NCBI GenBank assembly: GCA_000004695.1
Contig: CM000154.2
Span: 704,001-768,000, forward strand
From: Dictyostelium discoideum
Lineage: Eukaryota
Direction: 5' to 3'
DNA: 64,000 nt
Position 1 is the first letter of the stretch. Each line of letters begins with the position of its first letter. The translations under genes and the position numbers were made by a program. Below are positions 11,755 through 42,280 of this stretch, piece by piece. The notes under the pieces were generated by a model, which saw only the letters and a list, made by a program, of their open reading frames with translations, was not told the origin of the DNA and made no database searches.

Positions 11755-17476
<5,722 letters not shown>

Positions 17477-17591
17477 ATTACCAAGAAAACTATTTTATTG
17501 TTATTTTTAATTACAAAATAAATTGTAAAAAAAAAAAAAAAAAAAAAAAGAGAAATTATTTAATTTATTTTTATTTGTTTTTTTATTATTT

Positions 17592-20251
<2,660 letters not shown>

Positions 20252-20441
20252 TTTATAAAATTTTTTAAAAAAAAGAAAAAATTATTGTTGGTGTTTTTAA
20301 TATGGTGTGAAAAAATAAAAAAATAAAAAAAATAAATAAATAAATTTTATAATGAAAGATTTTAGTGTGCGTTTTAAAATAGTGAAAGTAAGTGTGGTAG
20401 GGTTTTTATACAAATAATACTATCTCTTTTGATCCCTTTAC

Positions 20442-20472
<31 letters not shown>

Positions 20473-20796
20473 CAAATTAAATTAAAAAAATTTAAAAAAA
20501 AAAATAAAAAAAAAAAAAATAAAATATTATAAAAAAAATCAAATGTGGTAAAAAATATATATATAAAAAAAAAAGATTTTTTTAAAAAATAATAAAAATA
20601 GTAATTATAATAAAAAAAAAAATGGAAAGAAGTAAAGGGTCTTAGGACTCACTAAAATGGGAAATATATATAATTTTTTTCTTTTTTATTTTTATTTTTT
20701 TTTATTTTTTTTTTATTTTTTTTATTTTTTATTTTTTTTTATTTTTTTTTTTTTTTATTTTTTTTTTTTTTTTAAATTAAACGAAAAAAATAAAAA

Positions 20797-22740
20797 ATGA
20801 TAAGAAATTTATCTATTTGTAAAAATTTTAGTAGTAGTAATAATATTATTAGTATTAAACCAATTTATTTATTAAATATAAAAAGAAATTTTTCAACCAC
20901 TCAACAGCAACAACTTAAAAAAGAAATTAAATCAAATCAAATAGAAGATTTTAATGTAAAGAATAAATGGTTTGATATAAATTCAAGATCAGCATTTTTA
21001 TTATTAAATCAATGTTTTAAATCAATATTTGAAAAAGCATTAACAAAAGAAGAGATTGAAAAAGTATTTAAAAATGAAAAGATTAAATATCAAGCATCTC
21101 TATCAACAGTACCATCAAAGAAAGTATTTGATCATGACTATTCGCTAAGTAATTTAGTGGTAGCATCAATGTTATTAAAAGACAATAATTTAGGTCAAAA
21201 ATTAATTGATGCATTTGAGTCTAATAAATCGGAAATACCCTATTCATCAATGATTGAAAAGTTAGAATTAAGTAATAAAGGTCATTTAAATCTTCGAGTT
21301 TCAGACGAATATTTAACAACTATATTAAAACTATGGATCAACCCTAATGAGGATAAATCGAAATTCCTAATAGATAATTTAAAATTTCAAGACGATGTTA
21401 ATTTAAATGAAATGGAAAAAGAGAATAAACTATTACCAATTAGAAGTAAGAAAGTTTTAGTTGATTTTGCATCACCAAATATGTCAAAGGAATTGCATGT
21501 TGGTCATTTAAGATCGATTGCATTGGGTGAATCAATTTGTAGAATTTTAGAATACATGGGACATGATGTGGAAAGAATTAGTCATGCTGGTGATTTCGGT
21601 ACACCATTGGGAATTGTATTGGCACATTCATTGGAGACCAATGCTGATTATTTAAAACATATTCAAGATCCAACTTGTAAAGATAACGAACCAATTATAC
21701 CAACACCAAAGGAACTATCTGAACTTTATACCACATCAAAGAAAAGAACTAAATCTGATGAACAATTTTCAAAGAGAACACTTTGGACTGCCGCTGAATT
21801 TCAAAAGGGCCCACCAATCTATGACAAAGTTAGTGGAGAACAAATTGGTGGTAGTGATCCAATAGTGTATGATGCATGGTTATCACTTTGTGAAGCATCT
21901 AGAATCGGATTCAATAAAGTGTTTCAAATGTTGGATATTAATGTAAACGAACGTGGTGAATCATTCTATAGGGATATGTTACCTGGTGTAATTGAAGATT
22001 TGACTAAAATGGGATTCGTAGATATTTCAGATGATGGTAGAAAATGTATATTCTTGGATAAAACCAAATGTAAAGATTCTCAAGTTCCAGTAGTAGTTCA
22101 AAAGAGTGATGGTGCTTATCTATACGCCACAACCGATATCGCCGCAATTAAACATCGTGTTGAAAATGGTAAAGAATGGGTCATTGTCATCACTGATGAT
22201 TCACAAAGTGATCATTTCCAACAAGTGTTTAAAATTGCTGAAGATGCAAATTGGTTAAATCGTAAGCAAACTCGTGTTGATCATTTATCATTTGGTGTTG
22301 TTCGTGGTCCCAATGGTCAAAAATTATCATCTCGTGATGGTAATCCAATTGCTTTAATCGATCTATTACAAGAATCAATTGAACGTTCAAAACAAGCTAC
22401 ATCACTTTCAAAATCTTTTACACGTTCTGAAAAATTAGATATTACTCAAAATGCAAATAATGTTGAAATTAATAGAATGCTTGATACTTTTGAAAATAAT
22501 AATAATGATGATAATAATAATGAAACTACAATTGATGAAAAACATTTCCTCAAGATTGGTATGGGTGCATTAAAATATTATGATTTAGCACACAGAAACA
22601 ATCCATATGTTTTTTCTTATGATAGTATTTTATCATTTAAAGGTAATACAAGTATTTATATTTTATATTGTTATACTCGTATTTCAACTTTATTAAGAAG
22701 AGCTAATTTTGATGGTTTAAATTTAAATCCAAAGTATGTA

Positions 22741-22773
<33 letters not shown>

Positions 22774-23090
22774 AAAGTATTAACTTTTTTTTTTTTTTTT
22801 TTTTTTATTTAGTTTGATTGAATTTAAAGAATTTACAGAAAAAGAAAGAAATTTAGTATTTATTATGTCTAGATTTAGTGATGTAATGAAAGGTACAGAA
22901 CAATCATTAAAACCTGGATTTATTTGTGATTACCTTTGGGATCTCGCAAATAGTTTCCATCAATTTTATGAAACTGAAAAAATTATTGGAAATGAAAGAC
23001 AAGATCAAAGATTATTTATTTGTTTGGCAGTTCAAAGAATTTTATCAACCGGTTTACATTTATTAGGTGTTGAAACTGTTGAAAAATTAT

Positions 23091-23092
<2 letters not shown>
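20797..23092 (+). CDS. Arginyl-tRNA synthetase, probably the mitochondrial isoform, 2 exons, about 738 aa
   Basis: Exon 1 is 20797..22733. The donor GTATGT is at 22734. A 79-nt intron is made of an A-run and a T-run. The acceptor AG is at 22811-22812. Exon 2 is 22813..23092. The class-I HIGH-type motif of ArgRS is present: SPNMSKELHVGHLRSIALGESICRIL..GHDVERISHAGDFGT. The catalytic core includes QKLSSRDGNPIALIDL. The C-terminal DALR anticodon-binding domain spans the intron (..CYTRISTLLRRANFDGLNLNPK-N-LIEFKEFTEKERNLVFIMSRFSDV...). The N-terminus MIRNLSICKNFSSSNNIISIKPIYLLNIKRNFSTT looks like a mitochondrial presequence. Confidence 0.85.
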
Positions 23093-23128
<36 letters not shown>

Positions 23129-23879
23129 AATTAAGAAATAGAAAAAAAAATAAAATAGAATGAATGTAATAATTTTATATTTTTTTTTTTTTTTTTTTTT
23201 TTTTCAGGGTTTAATTATTTTTATTTATGATTAATTTTTTGTAATTGTTTTTTTTTTATTTTAATAAAATAAATATATTAAATTTTTTTTTAAAAAAATT
23301 AAATTAAAAAAAAATAAAAAAAAAAATGATTTCAAAAACTAATAATACTAAATAGTAAAAAAAATTTTTTTTTTGGTTTTTTGAAAAAGAAGTTCCATCA
23401 AATTCATATAATAATAAATTCCAATCTCATGTCCATCGAAAAAAAGATTTTTTTTTAATTTTTTTTTTTTTTTTTAATTTTTTTTTTTTAATTTTTTTTG
23501 ATTTTTATTTTTATTTTTTTTTTTTTTTTTTTTTTTTACCCAACCTTTTTTTTATTTTTTTATTTTTTTCACACACACATTATCTTTTTGCTTTTTATTT
23601 TGAAAAATAAAATAAAAACTAATCAAAGAGTTGTAGTAAATAAATAAATAAATAAATAAATCACCACTTGTAATATTATATATATATAAATTTATTATTA
23701 TTATTATTATTATTATTTTTTTTTGTATTATTATTATTATTTTTTTTTATTTCCACAAACACCGCAATCACACAACCATTGCCATCAATCACACCCAATA
23801 TATACATTTTAATAAATACGCTCAATAAAAAAAAAAAAAAAAAAAAAAAACCTCAATAAATAAAAGTATATACAGACAC

Positions 23880-23907
<28 letters not shown>

Positions 23908-23910
<3 letters not shown>

Positions 23911-24560
23911 TCAGTAGATCCAAAACAATCAAAAATAGCAGATGTATTCGAAAGATGTGATGTTTTAGAGAGTTTTCCATTTCATGATGATCAATCAGAG
24001 ATTGAAGAACAATCACCAAGTATTGGATATGATGCATATGATAAATCATTGAATTATACAGATAGAGGTGCCTATGAAACTCAATGGTCCGAAGAAACAA
24101 TTGGTATGGAAAAAATGGAAGAAGTTTTAAAACAGGGTGATTCATTCATCAATATGGTCTATACATATCGTTCATGTTCAAAGGCATTACCAACTGTTAA
24201 AACCGCTGAACAAGTTAATAAAACTCAAATCTATGAAGGTAATTTCGAAGTGTTAGAACCAGAGATTAAGAAATTAAAGGATTTCATGTACTTTCAAAAG
24301 GACACAATCAAATTATTTTGTGATCATATTAAAAAATTAGCATCAACCTATGATAAAAAAAAAGAAACAATCTCAGCTTCTGAATCTTTTATCAATTATT
24401 TAGTTCGTATTTTAGATCTCTTAGCAATTTTAGATGCTTTAAAAAATATGAAAGCTTGTTTAAATAATGATTTTTCATTTTTTAAAAGGTAAAAATTAAA
24501 TTAAAAATTAAAAAAAAAAAAAAAAAAAGAAAAAATAATTATTATATAATTTTATATTAA

Positions 24561-24594
<34 letters not shown>

Positions 24595-27500
24595 AATAGA
24601 GCAACTGGATTTTTAAGAAAACAAATGTCAGGTACTGAAGATCAAACTCAAGAGAATCATACATTATATTTATTTTTAGCAAATCAAAATTCAATTACAT
24701 CATCATTGAAATTAGAATTACATAATATTGATAAGTTTGATGATATTTTACCAATGATTGTTAATCAATGTGCAGATTATTTGGAGCAAGAAAAGTATAT
24801 TTTACCAAGTGAAAAACATTGTTTACTTAGAGTTATGCCATTTGTATTGTTTTTAATCGATGAGAATGACTCTAAACATAATATCAACAAGAACAAGAAT
24901 TTGAATATCTCACGTTATGCAAAGATTTTCAAAAAGAATCCAGTCGTACCATTGTATGGTGATATGCAAATCACATTGGAATCATTGGTTAAGAGATCAC
25001 CACATTTCGATGAGAAGGCATGGGGTACCTCAACATTGGATAGTAAATCAGCGTTGGATTACGAGATCATTCATGTTTTGGACCAAACACGTTCCCTCTA
25101 CAACGAGTATATGGCACGTTTTGCAAATATGGTCAACGAGATTAGAGCGGCCAAAGCTCGTGGTCCAAAGGAACCATTGCCATTGGCAGAGTCTGATATT
25201 CAAGCAATCACATTGATGGGTTTGAGGATTCTCTCTGATTGGACCTCAAGAGTACTTCAACAATCGGCTTGGAAATATTCTAAACCAAACAATGATCCAA
25301 CCATTTCAGCAACCTTTGATTATGAACGTGTCGTTAAATTCAATTATACCAAAGAGGAGAGAACCGCTTTGGTTCAATTGATCGCCATGATCAAATCATT
25401 GGCTTCATTGATGATGAAGAGTGAAACATTACTTCAACCAATACTTCGTAAGACCATTCATCAAGAGTTGCAAGAGTTTGTTCAAATCAATCTCAAAGAG
25501 ACCATTAAATCCTTTGTAAAGAATAATCCAAAGAAGAAGGATAACATCAAATTGGAGATGTCACAATTGAAGAATATCTCTGTCGATTGGTTCAGTGGTT
25601 TCGAACCTGCCGAAGCTGTACCAAACAAAAAGAGTAAAGAAGTCGAAGAGAAAGTTCAAATTCCTGCTCGTGCCGTACCACCATCACCAACCCAATTGGA
25701 ATTGATTCTCACTTTGGTCTCATCATTAATGGATAAAAAGAAGGATTTCTCCTCTGATCAATATCGTGACTTTGAAGCATTTAGTAGCAAGGCCTTCTTT
25801 TATCGTTACCTTTTATCATTATCCTCATCAATCATTTCAATCACCGATTTAGCCGATCTTTGGTATCGTGAATTCTATTTAGAATTGAACAATCGTGTAC
25901 AATTTCCAATTGAAACTTCGCTTCCATGGATTCTTACCGATCATATCTTGGAATCAGATGATCCATCATTAATTGAACATCTCTTCTATCCTTTGGGTCT
26001 CTACAATGATACTGCTCAACGTGCTCTCCTAAGTTTAAACCAACGTTTTCTCTACGATGAAATCGAAGCAGAACTCAATCTTTGTTTCGATCAATTACTT
26101 TACAAACTCTCTGGTAAGGTTTATACTCATTTCAAGACTCAAGCAAGTTCTATCCTCTTGGATAAACCATATAAAACTCAATTGGAATTGGCTCATTTCA
26201 ATGGTAAATTACATACACCAAAATCACGTTTCGACGTTTTGCTACGTCAAAAACATATTACCCTCCTTGGTCGTTCCATTGATCTTTGTGGTCTATTGGC
26301 TCAAAGACAAAACAATACCATTCGTCAAAATTTAGATTATGCCATCAGTAGATTCGAAGCTTGCGATTTAACATCGATCGTTGAATTGGAGACCCAAATC
26401 GCCAATATCAAACTCACTCACAAACTCTTATCAGAATACTTTGATATAGATCCATTCGAATCAATCTTTAATGAAATCAATGAGTCCACTTCTTTGGTCT
26501 CTTATCATGGTCGTATTGTACTTCATATTATCTTTGAATTGGTGGCCGATTTCGCTCCAAACTATACCTTCAATTCAATCACTCAACGTTTTATAAAGGC
26601 TCCATACACTTTCACCGAAGAATTGAAACGTGATGCACTTCCAAAAACTAATCCTGTCTTTTTGTTTGGTAATAAATATTTGAATGCTGCCTATGCAAAC
26701 TCGATCGAACTCTACAAGAATTTCATTGGTGTACCACATATTCAATCAATCCTTAGAATCGTTGGTAAAAAGAATCTTCCTTTGATCGTTGCTGAGGTAT
26801 TACGTAATATTGAAATCAAGATCACCAATGTTCTCTCACCATACGTTAGTGAATTACTTCAAGGTATGCCTGCATCGACTAAATTACCAATCTATGATTA
26901 TGGTACTGAAGGTGGCTATGGTTATTTCCAACTTAAATTGAAAGACATTTACATCTATCCAGATTTACGTCCAGAGGTACTTCAAACATTCAGAGAATTG
27001 GGTAACAGTTTGGTATTTATGAATCTTTTGGATCAAGTTATCACTCAAACCGATAGTTATAACTTTGCCAAAGCTGCACCTTTCCTTGGTATCACTCCAG
27101 AGACTTGGAAAGATTTAGAACCATCCACTGAGGATCCAACCCTTCAATCACCATTGTACTCTCAATTACAAAAGTTGGCTCAACTCTTGGAGAGTAGACC
27201 AGAGGTTGCCAAATCTTCACAATCACTCAATGATATGGTTGCAAACGCATGGCGTGCCGATAAATTCTATCGTCCATCCGAACAAAACTTTTCTCTCTTT
27301 AAGAGTGTCCTCCAACGTTTCTCTTCAATCCTTAATATTGTTCGTCATGATTGGTCTGGTGCTCCTCCAGATAATGGTGTCATTTGCGTTGATTCCTCAA
27401 CAGAGTTTTATCGTTTATGGAGTGCCCTTCAATTTGTAATCTGTTGGCCACTCTCAAATGAAAATGATAAATCTTTCCATGAATTGTTTGGTGATGGTTT

Positions 27501-27799
27501 AATGTGGGCCGGTTGTTCATTGATCCATTTCCTTGGTCAACAATATCGTTTCGAATTATTTGATTTCTGTTATCACATTTTAAATGTAGAAGAGGCTGCT
27601 GCTGTTCGTTCAGATAAACCTGCCTTAAAGAATTTCTTTAAGAATGCTCAAATCATCAAAGATATCAATAATCAAATCTTTAGTATACTCAATACATATT
27701 GTCCACCACCACCACCTTCTAATATGATCCTTTCACCACCTGCTACTGAACAAGCTGAACAATTTATAGTTACAACCACTGTTGAAGAACAATCAATTC

Positions 27800-27831
<32 letters not shown>

Positions 27832-28112
27832 CTTCAACAATCAACTTCAAATTCTGGAAGTAGTTTATCACTTTCTGCTGCTGGTGCACCACCTCCACCA
27901 CCACCACCATCAACAAATGGTTTACCACCTCCACCACCAATGGCTGTAAGTAAATCAAAAATAAAATTTATAATAAAAAAAAAAAAAAAAAAAAAATTAA
28001 TAATACTAACATGCTCATAATTTAATAGGAATATGAAATGAGTTCAAGTATTGATGATTTTGCTCCACCCCCACCACCACCATTTGGAATGCCACCACCC
28101 CCACCAATGTAA
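23908..28112 (+). CDS. pirA: PIR121 / CYFIP (Sra-1) subunit of the SCAR/WAVE complex, 3 exons, about 1336 aa
   Basis: Exon 1 is 23908..24488. The donor gtaaaa is at 24489. The acceptor AG is at 24598-24599. Exon 2 is 24600..27945. The donor GTAAGT is at 27946. The branch point TACTAAC is at 28004-28010. The acceptor AG is at 28027-28028. Exon 3 is 28029..28112. The protein is colinear with CYFIP1/2. [20 protein letters not shown]...[19 protein letters not shown]...[27 protein letters not shown] matches the human LYTWRSCSRAIPQVK...FMYFQRKAIERF...[27 protein letters not shown]. Further on, [65 protein letters not shown] and [30 protein letters not shown] match their CYFIP counterparts. The last micro-exon adds a Pro-rich tail [27 protein letters not shown]. 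Confidence 0.9.
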
Positions 28113-28426
28113 AAAAAAAAAAATAATAATAATAATAAAAAATCAATTCCAACCTGGAAAATAAAAAAAAAAAAAAATTAATTCCAACTTGGAAAAAAAA
28201 AAAAAAAAAAAGAACAATAATTTGGTACACTACAAAAAAAAAATAAAAAAATAATAAATGGTATTTAATAATAAAATAATAAAAAAAAAAAAATGATAGA
28301 TATAGTTAATGTATAATTAATACACCTATTTTTATTTTTTTATTTATTTTTTTTATTATTTTTTTTTTTTATTATTTTATTACCATTCAAAATTTAATGG
28401 GTACTTGGTGTTTTACACATCCATTA

Positions 28427-28472
<46 letters not shown>

Positions 28473-29542
28473 CTAATGTAATACATTAAAAAGTTAATCC
28501 CTAATACAATGAAAGTAACAACTAAAAAAATAATTATTCAATTTTTTTTTTTTTCATTTTTTTTTTTTTTTTTTTCCACACACAATCATTTCAAAATACT
28601 ATTTTAACACAATGATTACACATATATTTGATTATTTATATATTGTTATTTACATGTGGGTGAGGGGGGTAATCGAAAATGTAGTTTAAAAAAAATTGTA
28701 TTCTCATACACCCACATTCATTCACACTTAATCTATATACAAATATAAATTACAAAAAGCAAAAAAATTATGCACATCCACAATCTACCATGTTAATAAA
28801 ATTCATTTGAAAATAATAATAAACAAACAATGATCCATTGTACAAATTTTTGATTTTAAAATTATTATTATTATTTTTATTATTATATATATTTTTTTTT
28901 TTTTTTTTTTGGTGATAGTGGTGATATATTTTCAGTATACTTAATTTAATTTATTTAATAGAAAATAATAATAAAAAATTAAAAAACAAAAAAAAAAAAA
29001 AAAAAAAAAAAAAGCATTTATATTATTATTAATATAATCATAAAGATAGGGAGTTCTCAATTTTATTCAAAAAAAAAAGTAATATAAAAAAAAATTAAAA
29101 AAAAAATTGTTAGGTAAATTAAATTTTATTTCAATAATTTAAAAATTTATTTTATTGGTTGATATTAATGTTCAAATAATATTTTTTAGAAGAATTTTTT
29201 TTTATTATTTTTTTTTTTTTTTTTTTTTTTTGAACTTTACAATTTTATATATTAAAAAAAAAAAAGATTGTAAATAATAATAAACAAACAAAAAAAAAAA
29301 AAAAACAAACAAAATAATAATATAACAGGAAAAAAAAAAAAAAATAAAGTATGTTCATATTTATTAATAATCAAAAAATAAATTATAAATAGAATTATTA
29401 ATATTTTTAAAATTTTATCCTTTTTTAGTTTTTTTCAATTTTTTTTAATTTGTACATAGGAAAAAAAAAATAGTAAAAGAAAAAGAAAAAAGAAAAAAAG
29501 AAAAAAGAAAAAAAAGAAAAAAAGAAAAAAAAAATAAACAAA

Positions 29543-32500
29543 ATGAAATTATTTATTTATTCAATTTTATTTCTTTTAATATTTAAAAGTTTTTTTGTAA
29601 ATTCAACAACATTAAAAGAAAATGAAATTGGTTCAATAAAAAAACAAAAGTCTCCATTTGAAGAGAATAATATTTCACAATTAGATTTTACATCAGTTTT
29701 TTCGCCAGGTGTTTATGCTATACCTTGGACTGATCCAAATATGCCAACAGTGGCATTGGAACAAGCCTCACATTCTGGTTATTTCATTGGAAATGTTATT
29801 CTTCAAGGAAGTCAATTCAATGACCCAAAATTGAGTGGTTTATTGAATGGAAAGGATCTTTATGTACTCAGTCATTTTTCAGGTGCAGCTTGTTGTCAAA
29901 ATGTTACAAGTGAAATAAAATTATTATTTACCTTTCCAATAAGCAATATTTGTTTGTTGATCGCATCTGTTGATGAGAGTGATTTTGTTACTGTAAGAGC
30001 CAGAAAAACACAAACCGATAATATTTATGGAATTGGTAGCTCAAATGCTCAAATGGATATGAAAAAAGATTGGGCAAACTATGGACAAGGCACTTTATCA
30101 GTTTCAGGGGTACAACCATCAAATAATTCGGGTATACCTCCAATTGTTCTCACTAGAGATCATTCAAAAGCTTTTATTACAAGTATGGGAAATCCAACCA
30201 CAATTAACTATCAGATCTTGGCTCCATTCATTAATGTATCTTCAATTCATATTTCTTATTCAACTTTATCCGATTCTCAATACGTATTTTATGCACTTTT
30301 CCAATGTCCAAAACCAACCAGTGATATTGAACCAACCTGTGAACCTGGATGCATGACAAGTGGAACTACTTCAACAACAACAACATCAAAAACAACAACA
30401 ACAGCAACAACTAAAACATCAACAACCGGTTCTTTGACTACTGGCCCTTCACAAAGTACTGGTCCTTCAACAACTACAACTACTGGTGGATCACAAAGTA
30501 CTGGTGTTTCAACGACCATAACAAGTGGATCACAAAGTACTGGTGCATCAACAACTGCCACAGCTAGTGGATCACAAAGTACTAGCGCATCAACAACTGC
30601 CACAGCTAGTGGTTCACAAAGTACTGGTGCATCAACTGCCACAACTAGTGGAGGAAGCACTGGATTTATTTCCGGAGCTTCAACAACTTCAATGTCAACA
30701 ACAACAGCAACAGGTAGTATTCCAACAACTGGATCACAAACCTCTACATCAGGATCATACACAACAACTGGATCACAAACCTCTACTTCAGGAACATACA
30801 CAACAACTGGATCACAAACTTCCACTTCAGGAACATACACAACAACCGGATCACAAACTTCCACTTCAGGAACATACACTACAACAACTAAACCATCTAC
30901 AACTACTGGTGGAGGAAGCACTGGATTCCTATCAGGAGCTTCAACAACTTTGGGTGGTGGGTCAGGATCATCGACCTCCTCACAATCTGGTCAAAGTTCA
31001 ACCGGTATTATTTCAGGAGTTATATCAGGAGGTAATAGTGTCGCAGGAGGATCAGGATCAGTCGGAAATAGTGGTTCAATTACTGGTTTAACAACAACTA
31101 CTGGTGGAATAAGTGGAGGTAATTTTATTGCAGGTGTAACAACTTCAAATTCAATCGCTCAAACTGGATCAGTTACAGGTTTAATTGCCAATGGTATTGC
31201 AGGATCAGTCGGAGGTTTAACAACAGCCAATTCATTAACAGGAGTAGGTTCAATTGGTAATATCGCCAATGCAATTTCAACTGGTCTTGTCGGTCAAATC
31301 ACAACATCAAAACCAACAATCTCATCAACAACAACAACAATATCCAGTCAAGCTACAAGTGGCTTTATTTCTGGAGCAGGTAGTATCGCTGGTGGATTAT
31401 CAATTGGTAATAGTGGATCAGTAGCCGGAATAACAACTCAATCAGGAAGCTTAACTGGTGCAAATACAGTAGCAGCAGTAACAACAGCCAACTCAATTGG
31501 ATCCAAAACATCAATAACTGGTGTTTCATCAATTGGAGCAATTTCAGGTTCAATTGATGGATTAACAACTGCAAACTCATTAACTGGTGTGTCATCAATC
31601 GCTGGTATAACTAATCAAGCATCATCAATCGCCAATGCAATTTCAGGTGGTAATATTGCAGGTGTAACTACATCTCAAATTTCAACCGGTATTATTTCAG
31701 GAGTAATTGCAGGAGGATCTGGATCAATCACATCTCCACAATCTATAACTGGCCAAAGTTCAACCAGTATTACTTCAGGAGTAATTTCAGGAGTTATATC
31801 AGGAGGTAATAGTGTCGCAGGAGGATCAGGATCAGTCGGAAATAGTGGCTCAATTACTGGTTTAACAACAAATGGTGGAATAAGCGGAGGTAATGCTATT
31901 GCAGGTGTAACAACTTCAAATTCAATCGCTCAAACTGGATCAGTTACAGGATTAACTGCAAATGGTATTGCAGGATCAGTCGGAGGATTAACAACAGCAA
32001 ACTCATTAACAGGAGTAGGTTCAATTGGTAATATCGCCAATGCAATTTCAACTGGTCTTGTCGGTCAAATCACAACATCAAAACCAACAGTTTCATCAAC
32101 AACAACAACATCAAGTCAAGGTACAAGTGGCTTTATTTCTGGAGCAGGTAGTATCGCTGGTGGATTATCAATTGGTAATAGTGGATCAGTAGCTGGAATA
32201 ACAACTCAATCAGGAAGCTTAACTGGTGCAAATACAGTAGCAGCAGTAACAACAGCCAACTCAATTGGATCCAAAACATCAATAACTGGTGTTTCATCAA
32301 TTGGAGCAATTTCAGGTTCAATTGATGGATTAACAACTGCAAACTCATTAACTGGTATATCATCAATCGCTGGTATAACTAATCAAGCATCATCAATCGC
32401 CAATGCAATTTCAGGTGGTAATATTGCAGGTGTAACTACATCTCAAAGTTCTACTGGTATTATTTCAGGAGTAATCGCAGGAGGATCTGGATCAATTACA

Positions 32501-35332
32501 TCTCCACAATCTATAACTGGCCAAAGTTCAACCAGTATTATTTCAGGAGTAATTTCAGGAGTTATCTCTGGAGGTAATAGTGTCGCAGGAGGATCAGGAT
32601 CAGTCGGAAATAGTGGTTCAATTACTGGTTTAACAACAAATGGTGGAATAAGCGGAGGTAATGCTATTGCAGGTGTAACAACTTCAAATTCAATCGCTCA
32701 AACTGGATCAATTACAGGCTTAATTGCCAATGGTATTGCAGGATCAGTCGGAGGTTTAACAACAGCAAACTCATTAACAGGAGTTGGTTCAATTGGTAAT
32801 ATCGCCAATGCAATTTCAACTGGTCTTGTCGGTCAAATCACAACATCAAAACCAACAATCTCATCAACAACAACAACATCCAGTCAAGCTACAAGTGGCT
32901 TTATTTCTGGAGCAGGTAGTATCGCTGGTGGATTATCAATTGGTAATAGTGGATCAGTAGCTGGAATAACAACTCAATCAGGAAGTTTAACTGGTGCAAA
33001 TACAGTAGCAGCAGTAACAACAGCCAACTCAATTGGATCCAAAACATCAATAACTGGTGTTTCATCAATTGGAGCAATTTCAGGTTCAATTGATGGATTA
33101 ACAACTGCAAACTCATTATCTGGTATATCATCAATCGCTGGTATAACTAATCAAGCATCATCGATCGCTAATGCAATTTCAGGTGGTAATATTGCAGGTG
33201 TAACTACATCTCAAAGTTCTACTGGTATTATTTCAGGAGTAATCGCAGGAGGATCTGGATCAATTACATCTCCGCAATCCATCACTGGTCAAAGTTCAAC
33301 CGGTATTATTTCAGGAGTTATCTCTGGAGGTAATAGTGTCGCAGGAGGATCAGGATCAGTCGGAAATAGTGGTTCAATTACTGGTTTAACAACAAATGGT
33401 GGAATAAGTGGAGGTAATGCTATCGCAGGCGTAACAACTTCAAATTCAATCGCTCAAACTGGATCAGTTACAGGATTAACTGCAAATGGTATTGCAGGAT
33501 CAGTCGGAGGTTTAACAACAGCAAACTCATTAACAGGAGTAGGTTCAATTGGTAATATCGCCAATGCAATTTCAACTGGTCTTGTCGGTCAAATCACAAC
33601 ATCAAAACCAACAGTTTCATCAACAACAACAACATCAAGTCAAGGTACAAGTGGTTTTATCTCTGGAGCAGGTAGTATCGCTGGTGGATTATCAATTGGT
33701 AATAGTGGATCAGTAGCCGGAATAACAACTCAATCAGGAAGTTTAACTGGTGCAAATACAGTAGCAGCAGTAACAACAGCCAACTCAATTGGATCCAAAA
33801 CATCAATAACTGGTGTTTCATCAATTGGAGCAATTTCAGGTTCAATTGATGGATTAACAACTGCAAACTCATTAACTGGTATATCATCAATCGCTGGTAT
33901 AACTAATCAAGCATCATCAATCGCCAATGCAATTTCAGGTGGTAATATTGCAGGTGTAACTACATCTCAAATTTCAACCGGTATTATTTCAGGAGTAATT
34001 GCAGGAGGATCTGGATCAATCACATCTCCACAATCTATAACTGGTCAAAGTTCAACCAGTATTATTTCAGGAGTAATTTCAGGAGTTATATCAGGAGGTA
34101 ATAGTGTCGCAGGAGGATCAGGATCAGTCGGAAATAGTGGTTCAATTACTGGTTTAACAACAAATGGTGGAATAAGCGGAGGTAATGCTATTGCAGGTGT
34201 AACAACTTCAAATTCAATCGCTCAAACTGGATCAGTTACAGGTTTAATTGCCAATGGTATCGCAGGATCAGTCGGAGGATTAACAACTGCAAACTCATTA
34301 ACAGGAGTAGGTTCAATTGGTAATATCGCCAATGCAATTTCAACTGGTCTTGTCGGTCAAATCACAACATCAAAACCAACAGTTTCATCAACTACAACAA
34401 CAACATCAAGTCAAGGTACAAGTGGTTTTATTTCTGGAGCAGGTAGTATCGCTGGTGGATTATCAATTGGTAATAGTGGATCAGTAGCTGGAATAACAAC
34501 TCAATCAGGAAGCTTAACTGGTGCTAATACAGTAGCAGCAGTAACAACAGCCAACTCAATTGGATCCAAAACATCAATAACTGGTGTTTCATCAATTGGA
34601 GCAATTTCAGGTTCAATTGATGGATTAACAACTGCAAACTCATTAACTGGTGTGTCATCAATCGCTGGTATAACTAATCAAGCATCATCAATCGCCAATG
34701 CAATTTCAGGTGGTAATATTGCAGGCATAACTACATCTCAAAGTTCAACTGGTTTGACATCATCAGTATCAATTGCATCCTCTGGCCAAAGTTCAATTGG
34801 TATTACTTCTGGAGTTATCTCAGGAGGCAACAGTGTTACAGGAGGATCAGGATCAGTCGGAAATAGTGGTTCAATTACTGGTTTAACAACAACAACTGGT
34901 GGAATAAGCGGAGGTAATGCTATCGCAGGTGTAACAACTTCAAATTCAATCGTTCAAACTGGATCAGTTACAGGCTTAACTGCCAATGGTATTGCAGGAT
35001 CAGTCGGAGGATTTACAACAGCAAACTCATTAACAGGAGCAGGTTCAATTAGTAATATTGCCAATGCAATTTCAACTGGTCTTGTCGGTCAAATCACAAC
35101 ATCGAAATCAACAACATCAGCTCAAGGTACAGGTGGACTCACTACTGGCAGTGGTTTGATAGGTTCTACAAATCCAACCAAAAAACCATCTTTTAGCTCC
35201 ATTGGCTTCATTTCTGGTAGTTTTAAAATGAATGATGATAAACCATTCATTTTTGAAAATGATAAAGTTGATAAAAAAGATATTGTTAAAGAAGTACCTC
35301 GAAATCAAAGCCCAGCTTTTAGTGAAAATTAA
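29543..35332 (+). CDS. Large secreted or cell-surface Ser/Thr/Gly-rich repeat protein (mucin or adhesin-like), 1929 aa, single exon
   Basis: The ORF starts with a signal peptide MKLFIYSILFLLIFKSFFVNS. A Cys-containing globular N-domain of about 260 aa follows. A Thr/Ser-rich linker follows, (GSQSTGxSTTxT)n then (TGSQTSTSGTYTT)x4. Five near-identical 256-aa units follow, each GSVGNSGSITGLTT..GGISGGNAIAGVTTSNSIAQTGSVTGL.ANGIAGSVGGLTTANSLTGVGSIGNIANAISTGLVGQITTSKPT.SSTTTT. The C-terminal tail is short and basic. There is no internal stop over 5.8 kb in 22%-GC DNA, and codon usage is non-homopolymeric. Confidence 0.8.
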   Translation: MKLFIYSILFLLIFKSFFVNSTTLKENEIGSIKKQKSPFEENNISQLDFTSVFSPGVYAIPWTDPNMPTVALEQASHSGYFIGNVILQGSQFNDPKLSGLLNGKDLYVLSHFSGAACCQNVTSEIKLLFTFPISNICLLIASVDESDFVTVRARKTQTDNIYGIGSSNAQMDMKKDWANYGQGTLSVSGVQPSNNSGIPPIVLTRDHSKAFITSMGNPTTINYQILAPFINVSSIHISYSTLSDSQYVFYALFQCPKPTSDIEPTCEPGCMTSGTTSTTTTSKTTTTATTKTSTTGSLTTGPSQSTGPSTTTTTGGSQSTGVSTTITSGSQSTGASTTATASGSQSTSASTTATASGSQSTGASTATTSGGSTGFISGASTTSMSTTTATGSIPTTGSQTSTSGSYTTTGSQTSTSGTYTTTGSQTSTSGTYTTTGSQTSTSGTYTTTTKPSTTTGGGSTGFLSGASTTLGGGSGSSTSSQSGQSSTGIISGVISGGNSVAGGSGSVGNSGSITGLTTTTGGISGGNFIAGVTTSNSIAQTGSVTGLIANGIAGSVGGLTTANSLTGVGSIGNIANAISTGLVGQITTSKPTISSTTTTISSQATSGFISGAGSIAGGLSIGNSGSVAGITTQSGSLTGANTVAAVTTANSIGSKTSITGVSSIGAISGSIDGLTTANSLTGVSSIAGITNQASSIANAISGGNIAGVTTSQISTGIISGVIAGGSGSITSPQSITGQSSTSITSGVISGVISGGNSVAGGSGSVGNSGSITGLTTNGGISGGNAIAGVTTSNSIAQTGSVTGLTANGIAGSVGGLTTANSLTGVGSIGNIANAISTGLVGQITTSKPTVSSTTTTSSQGTSGFISGAGSIAGGLSIGNSGSVAGITTQSGSLTGANTVAAVTTANSIGSKTSITGVSSIGAISGSIDGLTTANSLTGISSIAGITNQASSIANAISGGNIAGVTTSQSSTGIISGVIAGGSGSITSPQSITGQSSTSIISGVISGVISGGNSVAGGSGSVGNSGSITGLTTNGGISGGNAIAGVTTSNSIAQTGSITGLIANGIAGSVGGLTTANSLTGVGSIGNIANAISTGLVGQITTSKPTISSTTTTSSQATSGFISGAGSIAGGLSIGNSGSVAGITTQSGSLTGANTVAAVTTANSIGSKTSITGVSSIGAISGSIDGLTTANSLSGISSIAGITNQASSIANAISGGNIAGVTTSQSSTGIISGVIAGGSGSITSPQSITGQSSTGIISGVISGGNSVAGGSGSVGNSGSITGLTTNGGISGGNAIAGVTTSNSIAQTGSVTGLTANGIAGSVGGLTTANSLTGVGSIGNIANAISTGLVGQITTSKPTVSSTTTTSSQGTSGFISGAGSIAGGLSIGNSGSVAGITTQSGSLTGANTVAAVTTANSIGSKTSITGVSSIGAISGSIDGLTTANSLTGISSIAGITNQASSIANAISGGNIAGVTTSQISTGIISGVIAGGSGSITSPQSITGQSSTSIISGVISGVISGGNSVAGGSGSVGNSGSITGLTTNGGISGGNAIAGVTTSNSIAQTGSVTGLIANGIAGSVGGLTTANSLTGVGSIGNIANAISTGLVGQITTSKPTVSSTTTTTSSQGTSGFISGAGSIAGGLSIGNSGSVAGITTQSGSLTGANTVAAVTTANSIGSKTSITGVSSIGAISGSIDGLTTANSLTGVSSIAGITNQASSIANAISGGNIAGITTSQSSTGLTSSVSIASSGQSSIGITSGVISGGNSVTGGSGSVGNSGSITGLTTTTGGISGGNAIAGVTTSNSIVQTGSVTGLTANGIAGSVGGFTTANSLTGAGSISNIANAISTGLVGQITTSKSTTSAQGTGGLTTGSGLIGSTNPTKKPSFSSIGFISGSFKMNDDKPFIFENDKVDKKDIVKEVPRNQSPAFSEN
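30990..34880. repeat. Tandem array of five roughly 768-bp (256-codon) repeats inside the coding region of the gene at 29543..35332
   Basis: The periodicity shows in the antisense ORFs at 31365, 32133, 32901 and 33657 (spacing 768, 768, 756) and in the recurring protein blocks. The units differ by only a few substitutions (for example V/I, T/I, Q/A). Confidence 0.9.
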
Positions 35333-35514: not shown

Positions 35515-38500
35515 TTAATTATTCATAGTTTTCATTGAAATATTATTATTTTTTTTAAATTTAGATTTAAAAGATAACATTTTAGTTCTAACACTTATGT
35601 TTTTTGTGTAAAGTACAGACATTAATACAGTTACAACGATAGCAGCACCAACAACTGAAACAACTACGGCAACTGGTAAAATCCATTTTCTTTTATCATT
35701 GAAGTTGTTGGAAGAGTTTTCAATTTTAATACCACATTCATCATATTCATCTTCATTGAAATTTGGATCTACCAAAACTGAGAAATCTGGATCTAATTCT
35801 ATATATTCTTTAAAAAAAGGTATATTAACTTTAACTTGAATTGTTGTACCAAACTCTAAACCTTCATTTGAAGTTGAAACAACTCTACCATCAGCGATTA
35901 GATAATTTGAGAATTTACCATACAATGATACTTGATTATTTGGTAATGTTACCCAATGCATATCTGTTGATTTCTTTGCGCCCCATGCAATTGATTGTTT
36001 AATTTCACATTCTGTTGATAATTTCGAATTTGGTGATGCTTGATAAATCAATTGTAAATTATTTAAATTTGAAACAAATGTATAATTTTCAATTCTTACT
36101 GAATATTTAATTGAGTGATCAGGTAAATTTAATAATTGACCTGCCCACTCTCTTGTTGTTGCAACGGTAATAGTTTCTAGTTCTACCAAAACCTTTGAGT
36201 ATTCAGTTAATGTAGTGTTATAGATAAGAATATTATTTTCATCGGAAAGTAAAGACCATGAATCTGTTGTAAATGTATAATTTTTAACCAATTTACCATT
36301 GAAATCGATTTCTTGAATGTATGGTATTAGAATTGAATAACCAGATGATTTGGTATAGTCATTTAAAGTTGAACTACTATTTGTTGAGAAGGAACCCAAG
36401 TCAATGGATGGCTGGTTTTTACTTGTATTCATTGTCATTGATAAACCAAGATCGGGTGAATATTGATTACAAGATACACCAGTGTAATCCTTATTACAAT
36501 TACAAGTCATATCATTAGAACAAACTCCTTTTCCACTACAATTATTAATACATTTAAATGTCATATCGATTGAACAATCCGAACCTCCCCATCCATTTTC
36601 GCAGGTACAGGTTGATAAAGCTACATTACAAACACCATTACCACTACAATCTGATTTCATACAAGTTTGAATGAAAACACTAATATTTTTAATTCCATTA
36701 AAACCATAATCAACAGAGATGCTAAATGGATTGGTTGCAGGTGCCTTTAATGTATAGAAACCCAATGTACCATTAATCATTGTTAAATTTGAAGTTGAAA
36801 CCAATAATGATTGATAATCTAAAATTTTTGAAGGTAATAAATCGAGGTTTGTACCAGTAACATACAAAACTGTATCATTCATCATCACTGAAATTTGCCA
36901 AATATTTGGATTATAAAAATCTTGATAAAAGAAAAAGATTGGACAATTTTGAATGACCCCACCATTTATAACTCCATTTGAATCTACCATATTCCAAACA
37001 GAACATTGACCAACCATTCTTAAACCCCAATATAATGGAATTTCCATATCACATGTATATAATGATGATAGATTTGAAATTTGTTTTAGTGAACACTGAA
37101 TTTTCTCGTTGGTTTGTTTTTCTGAAATATAGAAAATTGGATCTTGACCATAGGATGGTGTAAAAATTTCATTGTTTGAATATTTCAAATCAATTGATAT
37201 TTTTAATTTACGATTTGAGCTACTAACATCAATAAAATTTCTAGAAAATGTTGGTGTACCAATTAAAACTGGTTTAACAATTGGTGGTGGTATAATATTG
37301 ATATATTGTTGACTAGTTTGGAATGCTGTTGGACTTAATTCATAACAATTATCGAAAATATCACAAAATGATTCTATAAATGCATTTGGATTCAAATAAT
37401 TATATTTTGCATTTAAAGTTAACAATGTACCACTTAAATTAAAATAAGAAGTTGGATCATCTTTTAAATATACCAATGATTGAGTATAACTATTGAAAGT
37501 ATCTTTAATTGTTAAAGTTAAATTCTTAATATCGGGGAATTGAGAAGATTTAATATTGAATTTTGTTGGTTGACTATTATCAAAATCGCCCAATCTCAAA
37601 AATCTTAAAATTAACTCCGGTCCTTGATAATCTTTATTTCTAATTATAAATTGTGAGTCAACGACTGTTGTGGTTGTTTGAAACTTTTGGGTTAATTTAT
37701 TAATAAATTCTAATTCTTTAGTTGAAAGTGTAAAAGTTGATGTTGGATTTGATTTCTTTGAAACATTAATTGAAATAAATTTCTTTTTACTTAAAGTTGT
37801 TGAATCGATTGAAAAATTAAAATTTCCTTTAAATAATGCTGAATTTGTTTCAGGTAGATAGGTCATTGTTAATGGTATACTATTTTCAATTGGTCCTTTA
37901 TTTTCATAATCACCAAATATTTGAACCACAACATTATAATCTTGATCAAAAACATTTCCAAATAATGATGAGAATGTAACGTTTGTTGCTGAATTAAAAG
38001 TTACAAAGTTTGTAAATAAATGAGCAGTTGGAATACTTGTAGTACCAGTACATTGATCAATATTTTCAAAAAATAATTGACGTAGCTCGGTTGCAGAGAA
38101 ATCATTTTCAAATAATCTATTACCTTTAATATCTGAACAATCAATAACTGGTGAAACAATTGAACAAAAGTAACGATTAAATTTTAATTTAATGGAAAAT
38201 TCTAATGATTGTGAGATATAGGTATGATTAATTGATTTCAAATGAATTGAACTTGGTGATAATGTAAATGAATTTGTTGCAAAACTAAATTTACAAGTTG
38301 ATTGACCAACTCCAACTGTATCCCAAATTGAAATTAAAAATTCATCTTCTTGATTCGATTCTAATGCCCAATTAAATTTAACAGTTAAACTTGGATTTAT
38401 TAAATCTTTTTTTATAAATGGATTGCCCGTCAATGTAATGGATGGATTTGTTGTTGGACCAACTAAACTATAGATCATTGATGGTGTATCACTCGCGATT

Positions 38501-40838: not shown

Positions 40839-42280
40839 TTACATTTTTATACTATTATTTTTATTATTTCTTTTTAATTTATATTTAAAAGATAAGATTT
40901 TAGTTCTAACATTTGTATTTTTAGTATAAAATAAAGACATTAATAATGCGACAATGATAGCAGCACCAACAACTGAAACAACTACAGCAACTGGTATAAC
41001 CCATTTTCTATTATCATTATTTTTTTTAATTAAAATACCACATTCATCATATTGTTCATTATTCATATTTCCAGAATTTACCAAAACTGAAAAATCTGGA
41101 TCTAATTCTATATATTCTTTAAAAAAAGGTATATTAACTTTAACTTGAATTGTTGTACCAAATTCTAAACCTTCATTTGAAGTTGAAACAATTCTACCAT
41201 CAGCGATTAGATAATTTGAGAATTTACCATACAATGATACTTGATTATTTGGTAATGTTACCCAATGCATATCTGTTGATTTCTTTGCGCCCCATGCAAT
41301 TGATTGTTTAATTTCACATTCTGTTGATAATTTCGAATTTGGCGATGCTTGATAAATCAATTGTAAATTATTTAAATTTGAAACAAATGTATAATTTTCA
41401 ATTCTTACTGAATATTTAATTGAGTGATCAGGAAGTGTCATTAATTGACCTGCCCACTCTCTTGTTGTTGAGATTTTTATCAACTCAATTGATACAGTTA
41501 CATTTGAACCTGCTGATAATTGAGTTTGATAAATTGTAATACTGCCACCAGTTGTTGAATTTTTAGTACTTTCAACTAATTGCCAATCATTTGAATTGGA
41601 GAATGTATAATTTTTAACTAATTCACCATTGAAATCGATTTCTTGAATGTATGGTATTAGAATTGAATATTCCGATGACTTTGTATAATCGTTTAATTCC
41701 AATGAAGTGTTTTTTGAATTTGTTGAGAATGAACCCATTGTAATTGAAGGTTGAGTTAAACTTTTATTCATTGTCATTGATAACCCGATATCTGGTGAAT
41801 ATTGATTACAAGATACACCAGTGTAATCTTTATTACAATTACAAGTCATATCAATTGAACAAACTCCATTACCACTACAATTATTAACACATTGATATGT
41901 TAAATCTATTGAACAGTCTGAACCACCCCAACCTTGTTCACATTTACATTCAATTGTTTCAGGTAAACAAATTCCATTACCACTACAATTTGGTTTCATA
42001 CATGTTAAAATGAAAACATTTATAGTCTGATTAAAATATCCAACCAATTCAATGGAAAATGGTTGAGTAACATTGGATTTTAATAAAAAATATCCAAAAG
42101 TATTAATATCAGTATTATTTAAATCAACATATCCATCATTTGTATTAACTAATAATTCATTGGTAGTATCACTAAATTTAGTTAAATTTAAATTATAACC
42201 TTTTAAATATAATTTATTATCATTCATTTTAACTGATGCTTCATTAACATTTGGGATTCTAACTTTTTTTGTTGTAAAAA

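Follow-up and report, generated by a model that had tools for sequence, protein, structure and literature searches.

The open reading frame (ORF) at positions 29543 to 35332 of the window, the 64,000-nucleotide stretch of Dictyostelium discoideum DNA analyzed here, is an independent single-exon gene. Its sequence identifies it as truly protein coding: the product is a very large, mucin-like secreted protein, in which a signal peptide is followed by a head domain, a linker, an array of repeated modules, and a tail. Five alleles, those of the window strain and four other strains, were compared, and the array and the spacer grow and shrink between strains in whole-codon steps. The gene has the following features.

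29543..35332, forward strand: complete single-exon coding sequence, 1929 codons plus stop, identical in GCA_054883475.1 and intact, with other lengths, in four more strains
29543..29605, forward strand: signal peptide, residues 1 to 21, MKLFIYSILFLLIFKSFFVNS, from hydropathy, with a predicted cleavage site
29606..30352, forward strand: head domain, residues 22 to 270, with six Cys and five N-x-S/T sequons, predicted to be all-beta from the sequence and a model
30353..31012, forward strand: Thr/Ser/Gly-rich mucin-like linker, residues 271 to 490, with 14-aa GSQSTGxSTTxTxS and 13-aa TTTGSQTSTSGTY tandem repeats
31013..35107, forward strand: module array A1-B1-A2-B2-A3-B3-A4-B4-A5-B5-A6, from repeat alignment
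31013, 31787, 32555, 33311, 34079, and 34808, forward strand: starts of the A modules
31358, 32126, 32894, 33650, and 34421, forward strand: starts of the B modules
35108..35329, forward strand: C-terminal tail, residues 1856 to 1929 (74 aa), with the charged hydrophilic end ...NPTKKPSFSSIGFISGSFKMNDDKPFIFENDKVDKKDIVKEVPRNQSPAFSEN, from a hydropathy scan

The sequence-only reading of this DNA had described a giant ORF with a signal peptide, and a single uninterrupted frame of 1929 aa was indeed found. The window contained no N. The ORF contained no AT-rich intron-like island. In GCA_054883475.1, the ORF was 100% identical to that of the window, and the two assemblies differed only between genes, in the lengths of homopolymers and at a few SNPs. 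Because this second assembly was identical across the ORF, there was no sign of the assembly collapse that had been feared for this strain. An interrupting frameshift had also been named as a possible refutation; all five alleles were open, over 5.8 to 9.6 kb. Although near-identical long repeats classically cause misassembly, it is hardly credible that the ORF is a noncoding minisatellite, a pseudogene, or an assembly artifact, given the identity of the two assemblies, the five open alleles in which every indel is in frame, and the excess of synonymous over nonsynonymous changes. The codon usage did not resemble that of strongly expressed genes (GC3 of 0.12; GGT in 47% of Gly codons versus 96% in pirA).

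The gene is located between pirA on one side and DDB_G0287805 on the other, the latter being an exact match to the neighboring ORF. The neighboring genes DDB_G0287805 and DDB_G0287807 encode ComC-type EGF surface proteins, and argS2 (DDB_G0287803), pirA (DDB_G0287855), and an N-recognin ligase gene (DDB_G0287859) were assigned from Pfam domains and from identifiers listed in supplements to papers. No dictyBase ID for the target gene itself emerged from the neighboring IDs and these supplements. Because pirA has its own TAA stop codon (28111 to 28113), followed by a 1.43-kb spacer of ~14% GC, a typical AAAATG context at the start MKLFIYSILFLLIFKSFFVNS, and a signal peptide, the ORF is considered an independent gene. 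Automated annotation of recent assemblies instead places the ORF at the C-terminal end of PirA, in a fused product of 3249 aa. The gene call in GCA_054883475.1 covers pirA together with the target ORF and bears FragX_IP matches, and two other assemblies carry products of 4481 and 4278 aa, which are 1318 to 1320 aa longer than the ORFs there. However, such a fusion is extremely improbable, because the stop codon and the AT-rich spacer lie in between and because a consensus start with a secretory signal peptide is incompatible with a cytosolic subunit of the SCAR/WAVE complex, as is established for CYFIP/PIR121. The gene is thus merged with pirA by automated annotation in GCA_054883475.1, where the domain evidence is direct, and, by length arithmetic, probably in three more assemblies. 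Proteomic and comparative studies can readily overlook the protein, and searches of large protein collections with the head or with the repeat unit did not recover its own record. Exact sequence look-ups of the protein returned no record, our literature search found no paper mentioning the gene, and tblastn detected no paralog of the head, modules, or tail elsewhere in the 64-kb window.

The array had been described as five near-identical 768-bp units. Long near-identical repeats were confirmed, but the array comprises 5.5 units, A(BA)5, with start-to-start spacings of 756 to 771 bp, in which the first half occurs six times and the second half five times. The five full units encode 252 to 258 aa, and all length differences between them are whole codons. 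Their pairwise DNA identities ranged from 94.9 to 97.8%; the earlier figure of more than 95% held for most pairs but not for two pairs at 94.9%. Each unit consists of two homologous modules of ~100 aa, A and B, which are 53% identical and share 54 invariant columns. The connectors between modules are short: those that follow A are Thr/Ser-rich and contain one Pro, and those that follow B are longer, rich in Gly/Ser/Ile/Thr, and likewise contain one Pro. Pro is confined to these connectors and does not occur in the ~100-aa module cores. The array contains 35% S+T, 21% G, and 23% I/V/L, with no Cys and 16 charged residues in 1368 aa. It also contains no N-x-S/T sequon, compared with 5.6 expected (P = 0.0007), despite 16 Asn per unit, and the +2 position is always I, V, L, A, or G, as in all five alleles.

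A short internal periodicity of 12 to 20 residues, suggestive of a beta-solenoid, had been proposed for the units. The sole significant signal in module A was a 3-residue period of I/V/L/F (power of 2.01 versus a shuffle 95th percentile of 1.18; reached by none of 500 shuffles), with the hydrophobic phase maintained over ~26 consecutive triplets, and the power near period 12.75 was 0.2. Module B showed no significant global period, and its phase slips. A periodicity of beta-solenoid coil length (~14 to 22 residues) was absent from the modules, and no collagen-like triple helix was indicated, as the Gly period-3 signal was not significant (12% of shuffles reached the same value) and the module cores lack Pro. 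AlphaFold2 in single-sequence mode, applied to A-B-A, gave a mean pLDDT of 34, a pTM of 0.25, and almost no secondary structure. Neither one unit nor the full-length protein matched a Pfam family at E ≤ 1, there was no NCBIfam match, and a module profile gave only chance matches against the PDB (E = 0.17). The proposed periodicity was therefore not found, structure prediction of the repeat yielded no confident fold, and positive evidence for a beta-solenoid was absent from the AlphaFold2, Pfam, NCBIfam, and PDB profile results. No homolog of the unit was present among the 8000 low-complexity candidates listed in a search of protein collections, in which distant relatives could be missed, and no module relative was found in 185,579 prokaryotic genomes.

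The Thr-rich, mucin-like linker of the sequence-only reading was borne out by residues 271 to 490. Tandem Repeats Finder (TRF) reported 4.5 copies of a 42-bp period at 30449 to 30636 and 4.2 copies of a 39-bp period, with 95% matches, at 30723 to 30885, and few Pro residues occur among the 13- to 14-aa repeats. Judging from this composition, the linker is probably an O-glycosylation region bearing mucin-type O-glycans. Between the end of the head (EPGC) and the first GNSGS motif of the modules, the span was 237 aa here and ~479 to 505 aa in two of the other strains. In L004, the first GNSGS motif is reached only after 1049 residues of the visible ORF, which corresponds to a linker of ~845 aa as a derived figure.

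All five alleles stay in frame, and the encoded proteins measure 1929, 2960, 3161, ~3268, and at least 3103 aa. The window strain has 6A+5B modules, compared with 10A+9B, 9A+8B, 10A+7B, and 10A+9B elsewhere, so that the total numbers of A and B modules, in ascending order, are 11, 17, 17, 19, and 19; expressed as AB pairs, there are five here and ~7 to 9 in the other strains. The four other strains have longer linkers and 17 to 19 modules, and copy-number variation, which had been predicted, is therefore demonstrated. The whole-codon steps fit unequal recombination or gene conversion. Differences between units were mostly synonymous, as in U2 versus U4 (16 synonymous changes and 1 nonsynonymous change). 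Between strains, the head was 94 to 97% identical and the module sequences were 93 to 98% identical; the dN/dS of the head was ~0.19 against the strain whose adjacent DDB_G0287805 is 96.9% identical (3.1% divergent). Column 22 of B is G in all recovered B modules of L005 (7 of 7 cores extracted), and column 24 of A is L in nearly all units of L004 and L005. Alignment of the alleles showed that the arrays are homogenized within each lineage, that is, by concerted evolution, and the substitution patterns showed that the array and the spacer are under purifying selection. Purifying selection together with homogenization therefore indicates that the protein is functional and that its length is a heritable variable.

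The six Cys of the ~250-aa head, which make it capable of disulfide formation, at residues 117, 118, 137, 255, 266, and 270, are the only Cys of the whole protein, in agreement with the Cys-containing head noted earlier. Three remote relatives of the head were found, all dictyostelid (one by inference): P0011, P0012 (EukProt), and P0013, which is RB653_007068 of Dictyostelium firmibasis. The homology extends over ~190 aa, with 25 to 29% identity and 29 invariant positions including three Cys, and the matches had E values of 5.5e-5 and 1.2e-4 in a search of 1.84 billion representatives. These proteins of 356 to 405 aa share the homologous N-terminal head with the target, but in them a single SdrD_B/CnaB-type domain comes after the head, whereas the target carries the mucin-like linker and the A/B array; PF17210 (SdrD_B) is present in P0011 and P0012 and absent from the target (Pfam). 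By these sequence comparisons, the head belongs to a small domain family found only in dictyostelids. A search of domain databases, which had been recommended for the N terminus, returned no Pfam family at E ≤ 1 and no NCBIfam match; a homolog search of protein collections returned none, the head and head-family profile gave only chance matches to PDB sequences, and a scan of metagenomes found no relative. A bacterial beta-propeller, P0010 (E = 2e-6), was rejected as a relative, since the similarity came down to a 36-aa YVTN/lactonase blade motif that aligned six times with a single short stretch of the head. The structural model of the head was of low confidence (pLDDT of 51) and had no Foldseek match at E ≤ 1e-3. 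The head may be a carbohydrate-binding-type jelly roll, as the model weakly resembles a CBM-like beta-sandwich, with sequence identities of 5 to 13% to CBM-like structures. The jelly rolls in question are those of the galactose-binding-domain-like class (CBM32, CBM61, F5/8 type C/discoidin, and IFT25), but sequence comparisons with Pfam, the PDB, and NCBIfam linked the head to no CBM or lectin family.

At the other end of the protein, the final 52 aa hardly differ among the five alleles, and the last 30 aa have a mean Kyte-Doolittle value of -1.1. Values above 1.6 in 19-aa windows occurred only in the signal peptide and in one buried head strand (residue 125), and a hydropathy scan of the whole protein revealed no transmembrane or GPI-type hydrophobic end. 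Because the C terminus is hydrophilic and no other transmembrane-like segment is present, a GPI- or membrane-anchored adhesin is unlikely.

From this architecture, the protein is somewhat more likely than not to be a glycoprotein of the extracellular matrix or of adhesion that lacks an anchor and bears a stalk of variable length, and the role of adhesin, spore-coat component, or sheath component suggested earlier is a reasonable guess. The head would dock on a polysaccharide or glycoprotein found in the extracellular matrix or on the surface of cells or spores; the glycosylated linker and the module array would form a long stalk or a self-associating fiber, and the length of the stalk would set reach, spacing, or adhesiveness. 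How the array behaves in such a stalk can be read in two ways. It may act as a rigid spacer or assemble itself into a filament, unlike a floppy mucin, with the modules folded into a regular rod or fiber (a beta-solenoid, a triple-stranded fiber, or a polyproline-II-type bundle), a possible but doubtful reading. The strict 3-residue hydrophobic phase of module A, the aliphatic content with almost no charge and Pro-free cores, the protein sequence kept by purifying selection, and the complete avoidance of N-x-S/T in all five alleles are consistent with it, whereas the poor AlphaFold2 scores, the lack of a solenoid, hexapeptide, or autotransporter-adhesin match (Pfam, NCBIfam, PDB profile), and a period of 3 that differs from the solenoid coil length of 15 to 22 residues and is lost in the phase slips of module B argue against it. 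Alternatively, and also tentatively, the array may be an intrinsically disordered, densely O-glycosylated "bottle-brush" spacer, of which only composition and length matter. Its high S+T and Gly contents, the failure of AlphaFold2 to find a fold, the free variation in length among strains, and Thr-rich connectors and a linker like those of mucin domains point in this direction. However, nonsynonymous swaps within the S/T/G/I class should then be tolerated, yet synonymous differences dominate; A and B retain their invariant columns, and hydrophobic phasing and sequon avoidance would be unexpected in a simple spacer. A more specific proposal, which we regard as rather unlikely, is that the A/B modules represent an undescribed fibrous fold, an uncharged Gly/Ser/Thr/Asn scaffold with an aliphatic residue at every third position and obligatorily unglycosylated Asn, stacked or bundled into a rod of allele-tuned length. 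If so, D. discoideum would possess a "ruler" that sets cell-cell or extracellular matrix spacing, is inherited, and evolves rapidly.

The very large allele differences between wild strains, and the adjacent ComC-type EGF surface proteins, might also suggest a strain-discriminating surface or matrix determinant (in self/nonself adhesion or in prey or symbiont interaction) whose variants are under diversifying selection. This is very unlikely: the head is conserved rather than hypervariable, the modules are similarly conserved across strains, the protein has no membrane anchor, and the alleles seen number only five. If the anchorless matrix or adhesion glycoprotein is the correct reading, a protein of this kind nearly doubles in length between natural strains, in a design that parallels fungal adhesins and animal mucins with unrelated building blocks and a module that has no detectable relatives. 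The gene would then be a tractable model for the in-frame upkeep and homogenization of long coding minisatellites, for a possible role of stalk length in tuning multicellular adhesion or matrix properties, and for the fold of a period-3 hydrophobic, sequon-free Gly/Ser/Thr module.

In fungal cell-wall adhesins (Saccharomyces Flo1/Flo11, Candida Als, and Epa), the number of repeats varies between strains by recombination, which alters protein length. The target resembles the Flo/Als/Epa adhesins in having a signal peptide, an N-terminal putative ligand-binding head that may be a beta-sandwich, and then Ser/Thr-rich tandem repeats, and its intragenic repeats differ in copy number across strains (11 to 19 modules). 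Unlike them, it has no C-terminal GPI signal or hydrophobic end, its head has no PA14, Flo5, or Als-type domain (Pfam, E ≤ 1), and its repeat units, each ~256 aa long and made of two modules, contain 23% I/V/L and are not homologous to the fungal repeats. Dictyostelium PsA, SP96, and similar proteins are mucin-like prespore or spore-coat glycoproteins. The secreted target, with a linker of polymorphic length whose 13- to 14-aa Thr/Ser-rich repeats are likely O-glycan carriers, resembles these proteins and mucins; unlike mucins, its linker is Pro-poor and most of the protein consists of conserved, hydrophobic-phased modules of ~100 aa. No VWD, CK, EGF, or spore-coat Cys-rich domain was found in the target by Pfam. 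YadA-like trimeric autotransporter heads, curli CsgA, and hexapeptide left-handed beta-helices represent bacterial fibrous adhesins whose short repeats are rich in Gly, Ser, Ala, and Asn. The target is superficially similar in its motif strings ([AG]-N-[SA]-[IVL] as well as S-[IV]-x-G-x-x), uncharged G/S/T/N/I composition, and extracellular setting, but its period is 3 and not 14, 18, or 19 to 23. As relatives, the YadA-like, curli-like, and hexapeptide proteins were rejected, with no Pfam match at E ≤ 1, only chance PDB profile matches, and none in the 185,579 prokaryotic genomes.

In addition, a cluster of motifs was observed in the spacer between pirA and the target gene.

28576..28716, no strand assigned: G-box-like (GBF-type, KGKGKGK) cluster, a candidate developmental promoter element, ~830 to 970 bp upstream of the ATG
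28655-28662, forward strand, and 28709-28716, reverse strand: inverted pair of TGTGGGTG, a sequence that occurs nowhere else in the 64-kb window

The G-box consensus was taken from PMC2257962. Six KGKGKGK matches fall within 141 bp, at the GC peak of the otherwise ~14% GC spacer. The degenerate G-box pattern was not enriched window-wide (34 observed versus 35 expected), and the clustering alone stands out. In strain L003, the motif block was almost perfectly conserved, with one 1-nucleotide deletion in a G run, and the neighboring spacer carried multinucleotide indels. The paired G-box motifs suggest that the gene may be expressed postaggregatively in a GBF-dependent manner.

The target gene occupies 29543-35332(+) as a single open frame of 1929 codons, with an A-rich leader and an AAAATG start preceding a hydrophobic N-terminal signal sequence (MKLFIYSILFLLIFKSFFVNS); the giant secreted-type ORF proposed in the sequence-only reading was thus confirmed. 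The module array is preceded by two regions.

Regions of the protein N-terminal to the array
Residues 22-270: head, normal complexity, with all six Cys of the protein (117, 118, 137, 255, 266, and 270)
Residues 271-490: linker, rich in Thr/Ser/Gly, with tandem repeats (42-nt x4.5 and 39-nt x4.2)

The head holds five of the six N-x-S/T sequons in the protein. A hydropathy scan of the whole protein showed a charged and hydrophilic C terminus and no transmembrane-like segment beyond the signal peptide and one buried head strand. Because a signal peptide is present and a membrane anchor is not predicted, the product should be secreted, with neither a GPI nor a membrane anchor. Antisense and alternative-frame ORFs of 188 to 210 aa, Val/Pro/Asp-rich or Gln/His/Leu-rich in composition, run across the mucin linker at 30289-30921(-) and 30525-31091(+); these were rejected as genes and regarded as by-products of repetitive codon composition.

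The gene lies among the following neighbors. Apart from the pirA and target coding sequences, the window has a GC content of about 18-27%.

Neighbors of the target gene
Upstream: argS2 (DDB_G0287803)
Upstream: pirA/CYFIP (DDB_G0287855), FragX_IP domain
Upstream: N-recognin ligase (DDB_G0287859)
Downstream: DDB_G0287805, exact match to a D. discoideum protein
Downstream: two ComC-type EGF surface proteins, DDB_G0287805 being one of them

The pirA stop codon (TAA, 28111-28113) is followed by a 1.43-kb spacer of about 14% GC up to the target ATG, and no AT-rich intron-like island was found within the target ORF. In assembly GCA_054883475.1 (locus L001), pirA and the target ORF are called as one 3249-aa product. 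The products called at L001 to L004, loci recovered from other assemblies (3249, 4481, 4278, and 4592 aa, respectively), exceed the local ORF by about 1318-1325 aa; direct domain evidence of a pirA fusion came from L001 only, and the L004 excess is consistent with one.

Apparent pirA-target merged calls
Window: 23000-35332
L001: 14908-24725
L002: 14930-24740
L003: 17171-26975
L004: 17214-27013

PirA is a cytosolic SCAR-complex subunit, which is incompatible with an internal secretory signal. We therefore regard the pirA-target fusions in recent D. discoideum assemblies as annotation artifacts. Searches with head and unit queries matched neither the target nor the fused models in protein collections of 5.8 billion clusters and 1.84 billion representatives, and look-up of the exact 1929-aa sequence returned no record.

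Long direct repeats start at 31013 and are spaced 756-771 bp apart. When the five full units were aligned by codon, pairwise DNA identities were 94.9-97.8%, and all length differences equaled whole numbers of codons. The five near-identical units described previously are therefore real, but each 256-aa unit consists of two homologous modules of about 100 aa, A and B (113 and 143 aa; 53% identity, BLASTP E 2e-21); the array is A(BA)5, eleven modules in all. Divergence is greatest in the A copies at the two ends of the array (79% DNA identity over a 300-nt reference segment, against 97-98% for inner copies). The array contains 35% S+T, 21% Gly, and 23% I/V/L. It lacks Cys, charged residues number only 16 among 1368 aa, and Pro is confined to the connectors.

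The previously suggested periodicity of 12-20 residues was absent: autocorrelation gave weak peaks at lags 6, 9, and 15, and the one significant spectral period was 3.0. This signal comes from module A, in which I/V/L/F recurs every 3.0 residues with a power reached by none of 500 shuffles; in module A (31787-32125) and its equivalents, an aliphatic residue sits mid-triplet across about 26 consecutive triplets. A hydrophobic period of exactly 3 differs from the periodicities of alpha-helices, beta-strands, and known solenoids. In module B the triplet pattern is local and slips in phase, and no global period reaches significance. The linker and array of all alleles contain no N-x-S/T, except for NTS at residue 275, the head-linker boundary, in L002 and L003. 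Each unit has 16 Asn and no sequon against 5.6 +/- 1.9 expected by shuffling (P(0)=0.0007), and Asn is followed at position +2, without exception, by I, V, L, A, or G. Because of this sequon avoidance, the hydrophobic phasing, and the conservation, we argue that module sequence matters beyond composition. No module relatives were found in Pfam, NCBIfam, PDB, and prokaryotic genomes, and an AlphaFold2 model of A-B-A reached pLDDT 34.

The 24.7-kb L001 locus aligned end to end with the window, and its ORF was 100% identical; the 5.5-unit structure is thus reproducible for the window lineage. The loci of four further strains were located via orthologues of a neighboring gene, and all four carried an intact ORF, each of a different length.

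ORF length and module content of the recovered alleles
Window and L001 (GCA_054883475.1): 1929 aa; 6A + 5B
L002 (GCA_054859355.1): 3161 aa; 10A + 9B
L003 (GCA_054859385.1): 2960 aa; 9A + 8B
L004 (GCA_054859205.1, D. cf. discoideum): at least 3202 aa, about 3268 with the missing N terminus; 10A + 7B, A/B hybrids included
L005 (GCA_054859235.1, D. cf. discoideum): at least 3103 aa visible; 10A + 9B

These module counts and ORF lengths bear out the copy-number polymorphism anticipated earlier, and the length polymorphism results from in-frame module gain and loss. The window allele is the shortest among those recovered. The linker, from the end of the head (EPGC) to the first GNSGS module motif, measures 237 aa for the window allele and about 480-505 aa for L002 and L003; the L004 figure, about 845 aa, is derived. 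The L004 allele, at 17214-26822(-), also carries truncated modules and A/B hybrids (e.g., ...NIANAISGGNIAGITTSQ...), which point to unequal exchange between A and B at the common IANAIS motif.

Codon differences between units were more often synonymous than nonsynonymous (e.g., 16 to 1 for U2 versus U4). Between the window and L002, the head differed by 10 synonymous and 7 nonsynonymous changes (173 and 637 sites, respectively; dN/dS of about 0.19), and neighboring DDB_G0287805 was 96.9% identical. Head identity to the window was 97% for L002, 97% for L003, and 94% for L004; all six head Cys are kept in L002 and L003, the two complete alleles examined, and the C-terminal 52 residues are nearly invariant among alleles. 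Lineage-specific substitutions run through whole arrays: B column 22 is Gly in 7/7 recovered L005 B cores and Ala everywhere else, and at A column 24 D. discoideum carries Phe or Ala but almost every L004 and L005 unit carries Leu. The blocks of A variants, 5' T/F-type and central N/A-type, differ in size among strains. Together with the selection pattern, these array-wide substitutions are the signature of a functional coding array under unequal crossing-over or gene conversion (concerted evolution).

The head matched nothing in Pfam, NCBIfam, or PDB sequences. An exhaustive HMMER scan identified P0011 (E 5.5e-5) and P0012 (E 1.2e-4) as credible remote relatives, and a profile search added P0013 of Dictyostelium firmibasis. 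In these proteins of 356-405 aa, the head precedes an SdrD_B/CnaB-type domain (for P0013, from precomputed PF17210), and P0011 has an N-terminal signal-like segment. By these comparisons, the only homologs of the head are the head domains of a few dictyostelid SdrD_B proteins. A bacterial beta-propeller (P0010) was discarded, as a single 36-aa segment matched repeatedly: head residues 186-221 (LTRDHSKAFITSMGNPTTINYQ...) resemble the YVTN/lactonase blade consensus, with 49% identity to repeated blades, which we judged a chance or strand-motif match, not homology. The AlphaFold2 head model, from a four-sequence alignment, is all-beta and of modest quality (pLDDT 51, pTM 0.58). Its nearest structural neighbors are galactose-binding-domain-like jelly rolls, with a Foldseek match to CBM61 at E 3e-3 and nothing at E<=1e-3, a lead that the head may be lectin- or CBM-like.

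Altogether, the target is a real, independent gene under selection, with a modular structure; a PirA fusion, a pseudogene, a non-coding minisatellite, and an assembly artifact are effectively excluded. We infer, at slightly better than even odds, an extracellular matrix/adhesion glycoprotein, in which the head would dock on a carbohydrate or matrix ligand and the glycosylated linker and array would form a stalk or fiber of variable length. The array itself may be a folded rod, which we hold tentatively, or a disordered, glycosylated spacer, to which we give the same tentative weight. A role in strain discrimination is possible but improbable, and is not favored because the head and modules are conserved, not hypervariable.

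The design of the protein, a putatively lectin-like head with Ser/Thr-rich, copy-number-variable repeats, would work like that of the fungal Flo/Als/Epa adhesins and resembles that of mucins. However, it has no GPI signal and no PA14, Als, VWD, or EGF domain, and its repeats are unrelated to those of these families. A superficial module resemblance to YadA-like heads, curli, and hexapeptide helices failed every test. Because membership in known families fails on defining features, we class the target as a known architectural plan assembled from orphan components. An in-frame 6-10-kb gene that nearly doubles between strains, its period-3, sequon-free module, and its systematic mis-annotation with pirA are worth follow-up.

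About 0.9 kb 5' of the target ATG, a G-box/GBF-like motif cluster (28576-28716), identified with a GBF-type consensus quoted in PMC2257962, contains an inverted TGTGGGTG pair 54 bp apart, and no other such octamer occurs in the 64-kb window. The block is nearly perfectly conserved in L003, with one 1-nt G-run deletion, whereas the adjoining spacer has multi-nucleotide indels. Because paired GBF sites drive post-aggregative Dictyostelium genes (PMC2257962), post-aggregative or developmental expression of the target is plausible but unproven. The codon usage of the target, with a GC3 of 0.12, is typical of a gene with ordinary or weak expression.

The window and L001 differ at 30 positions, all intergenic and mostly in homopolymer length. 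Over window positions 25492-50304, 18/18 indels are poly-A/T tracts (plus one 1-nt C), shorter in L001, and the 12 substitutions are mostly clustered at 46789-47296; these differences look like homopolymer compression in one assembly and not biological variation. In addition, the adjacent DDB_G0287805 and DDB_G0287807 (ComC_SSD/EGF_TEN) share a segment of about 620 bp at 91% identity (35543-36161 versus 40861-41470), and the annotations of three other strains present them as a single product of 2075-2084 aa.
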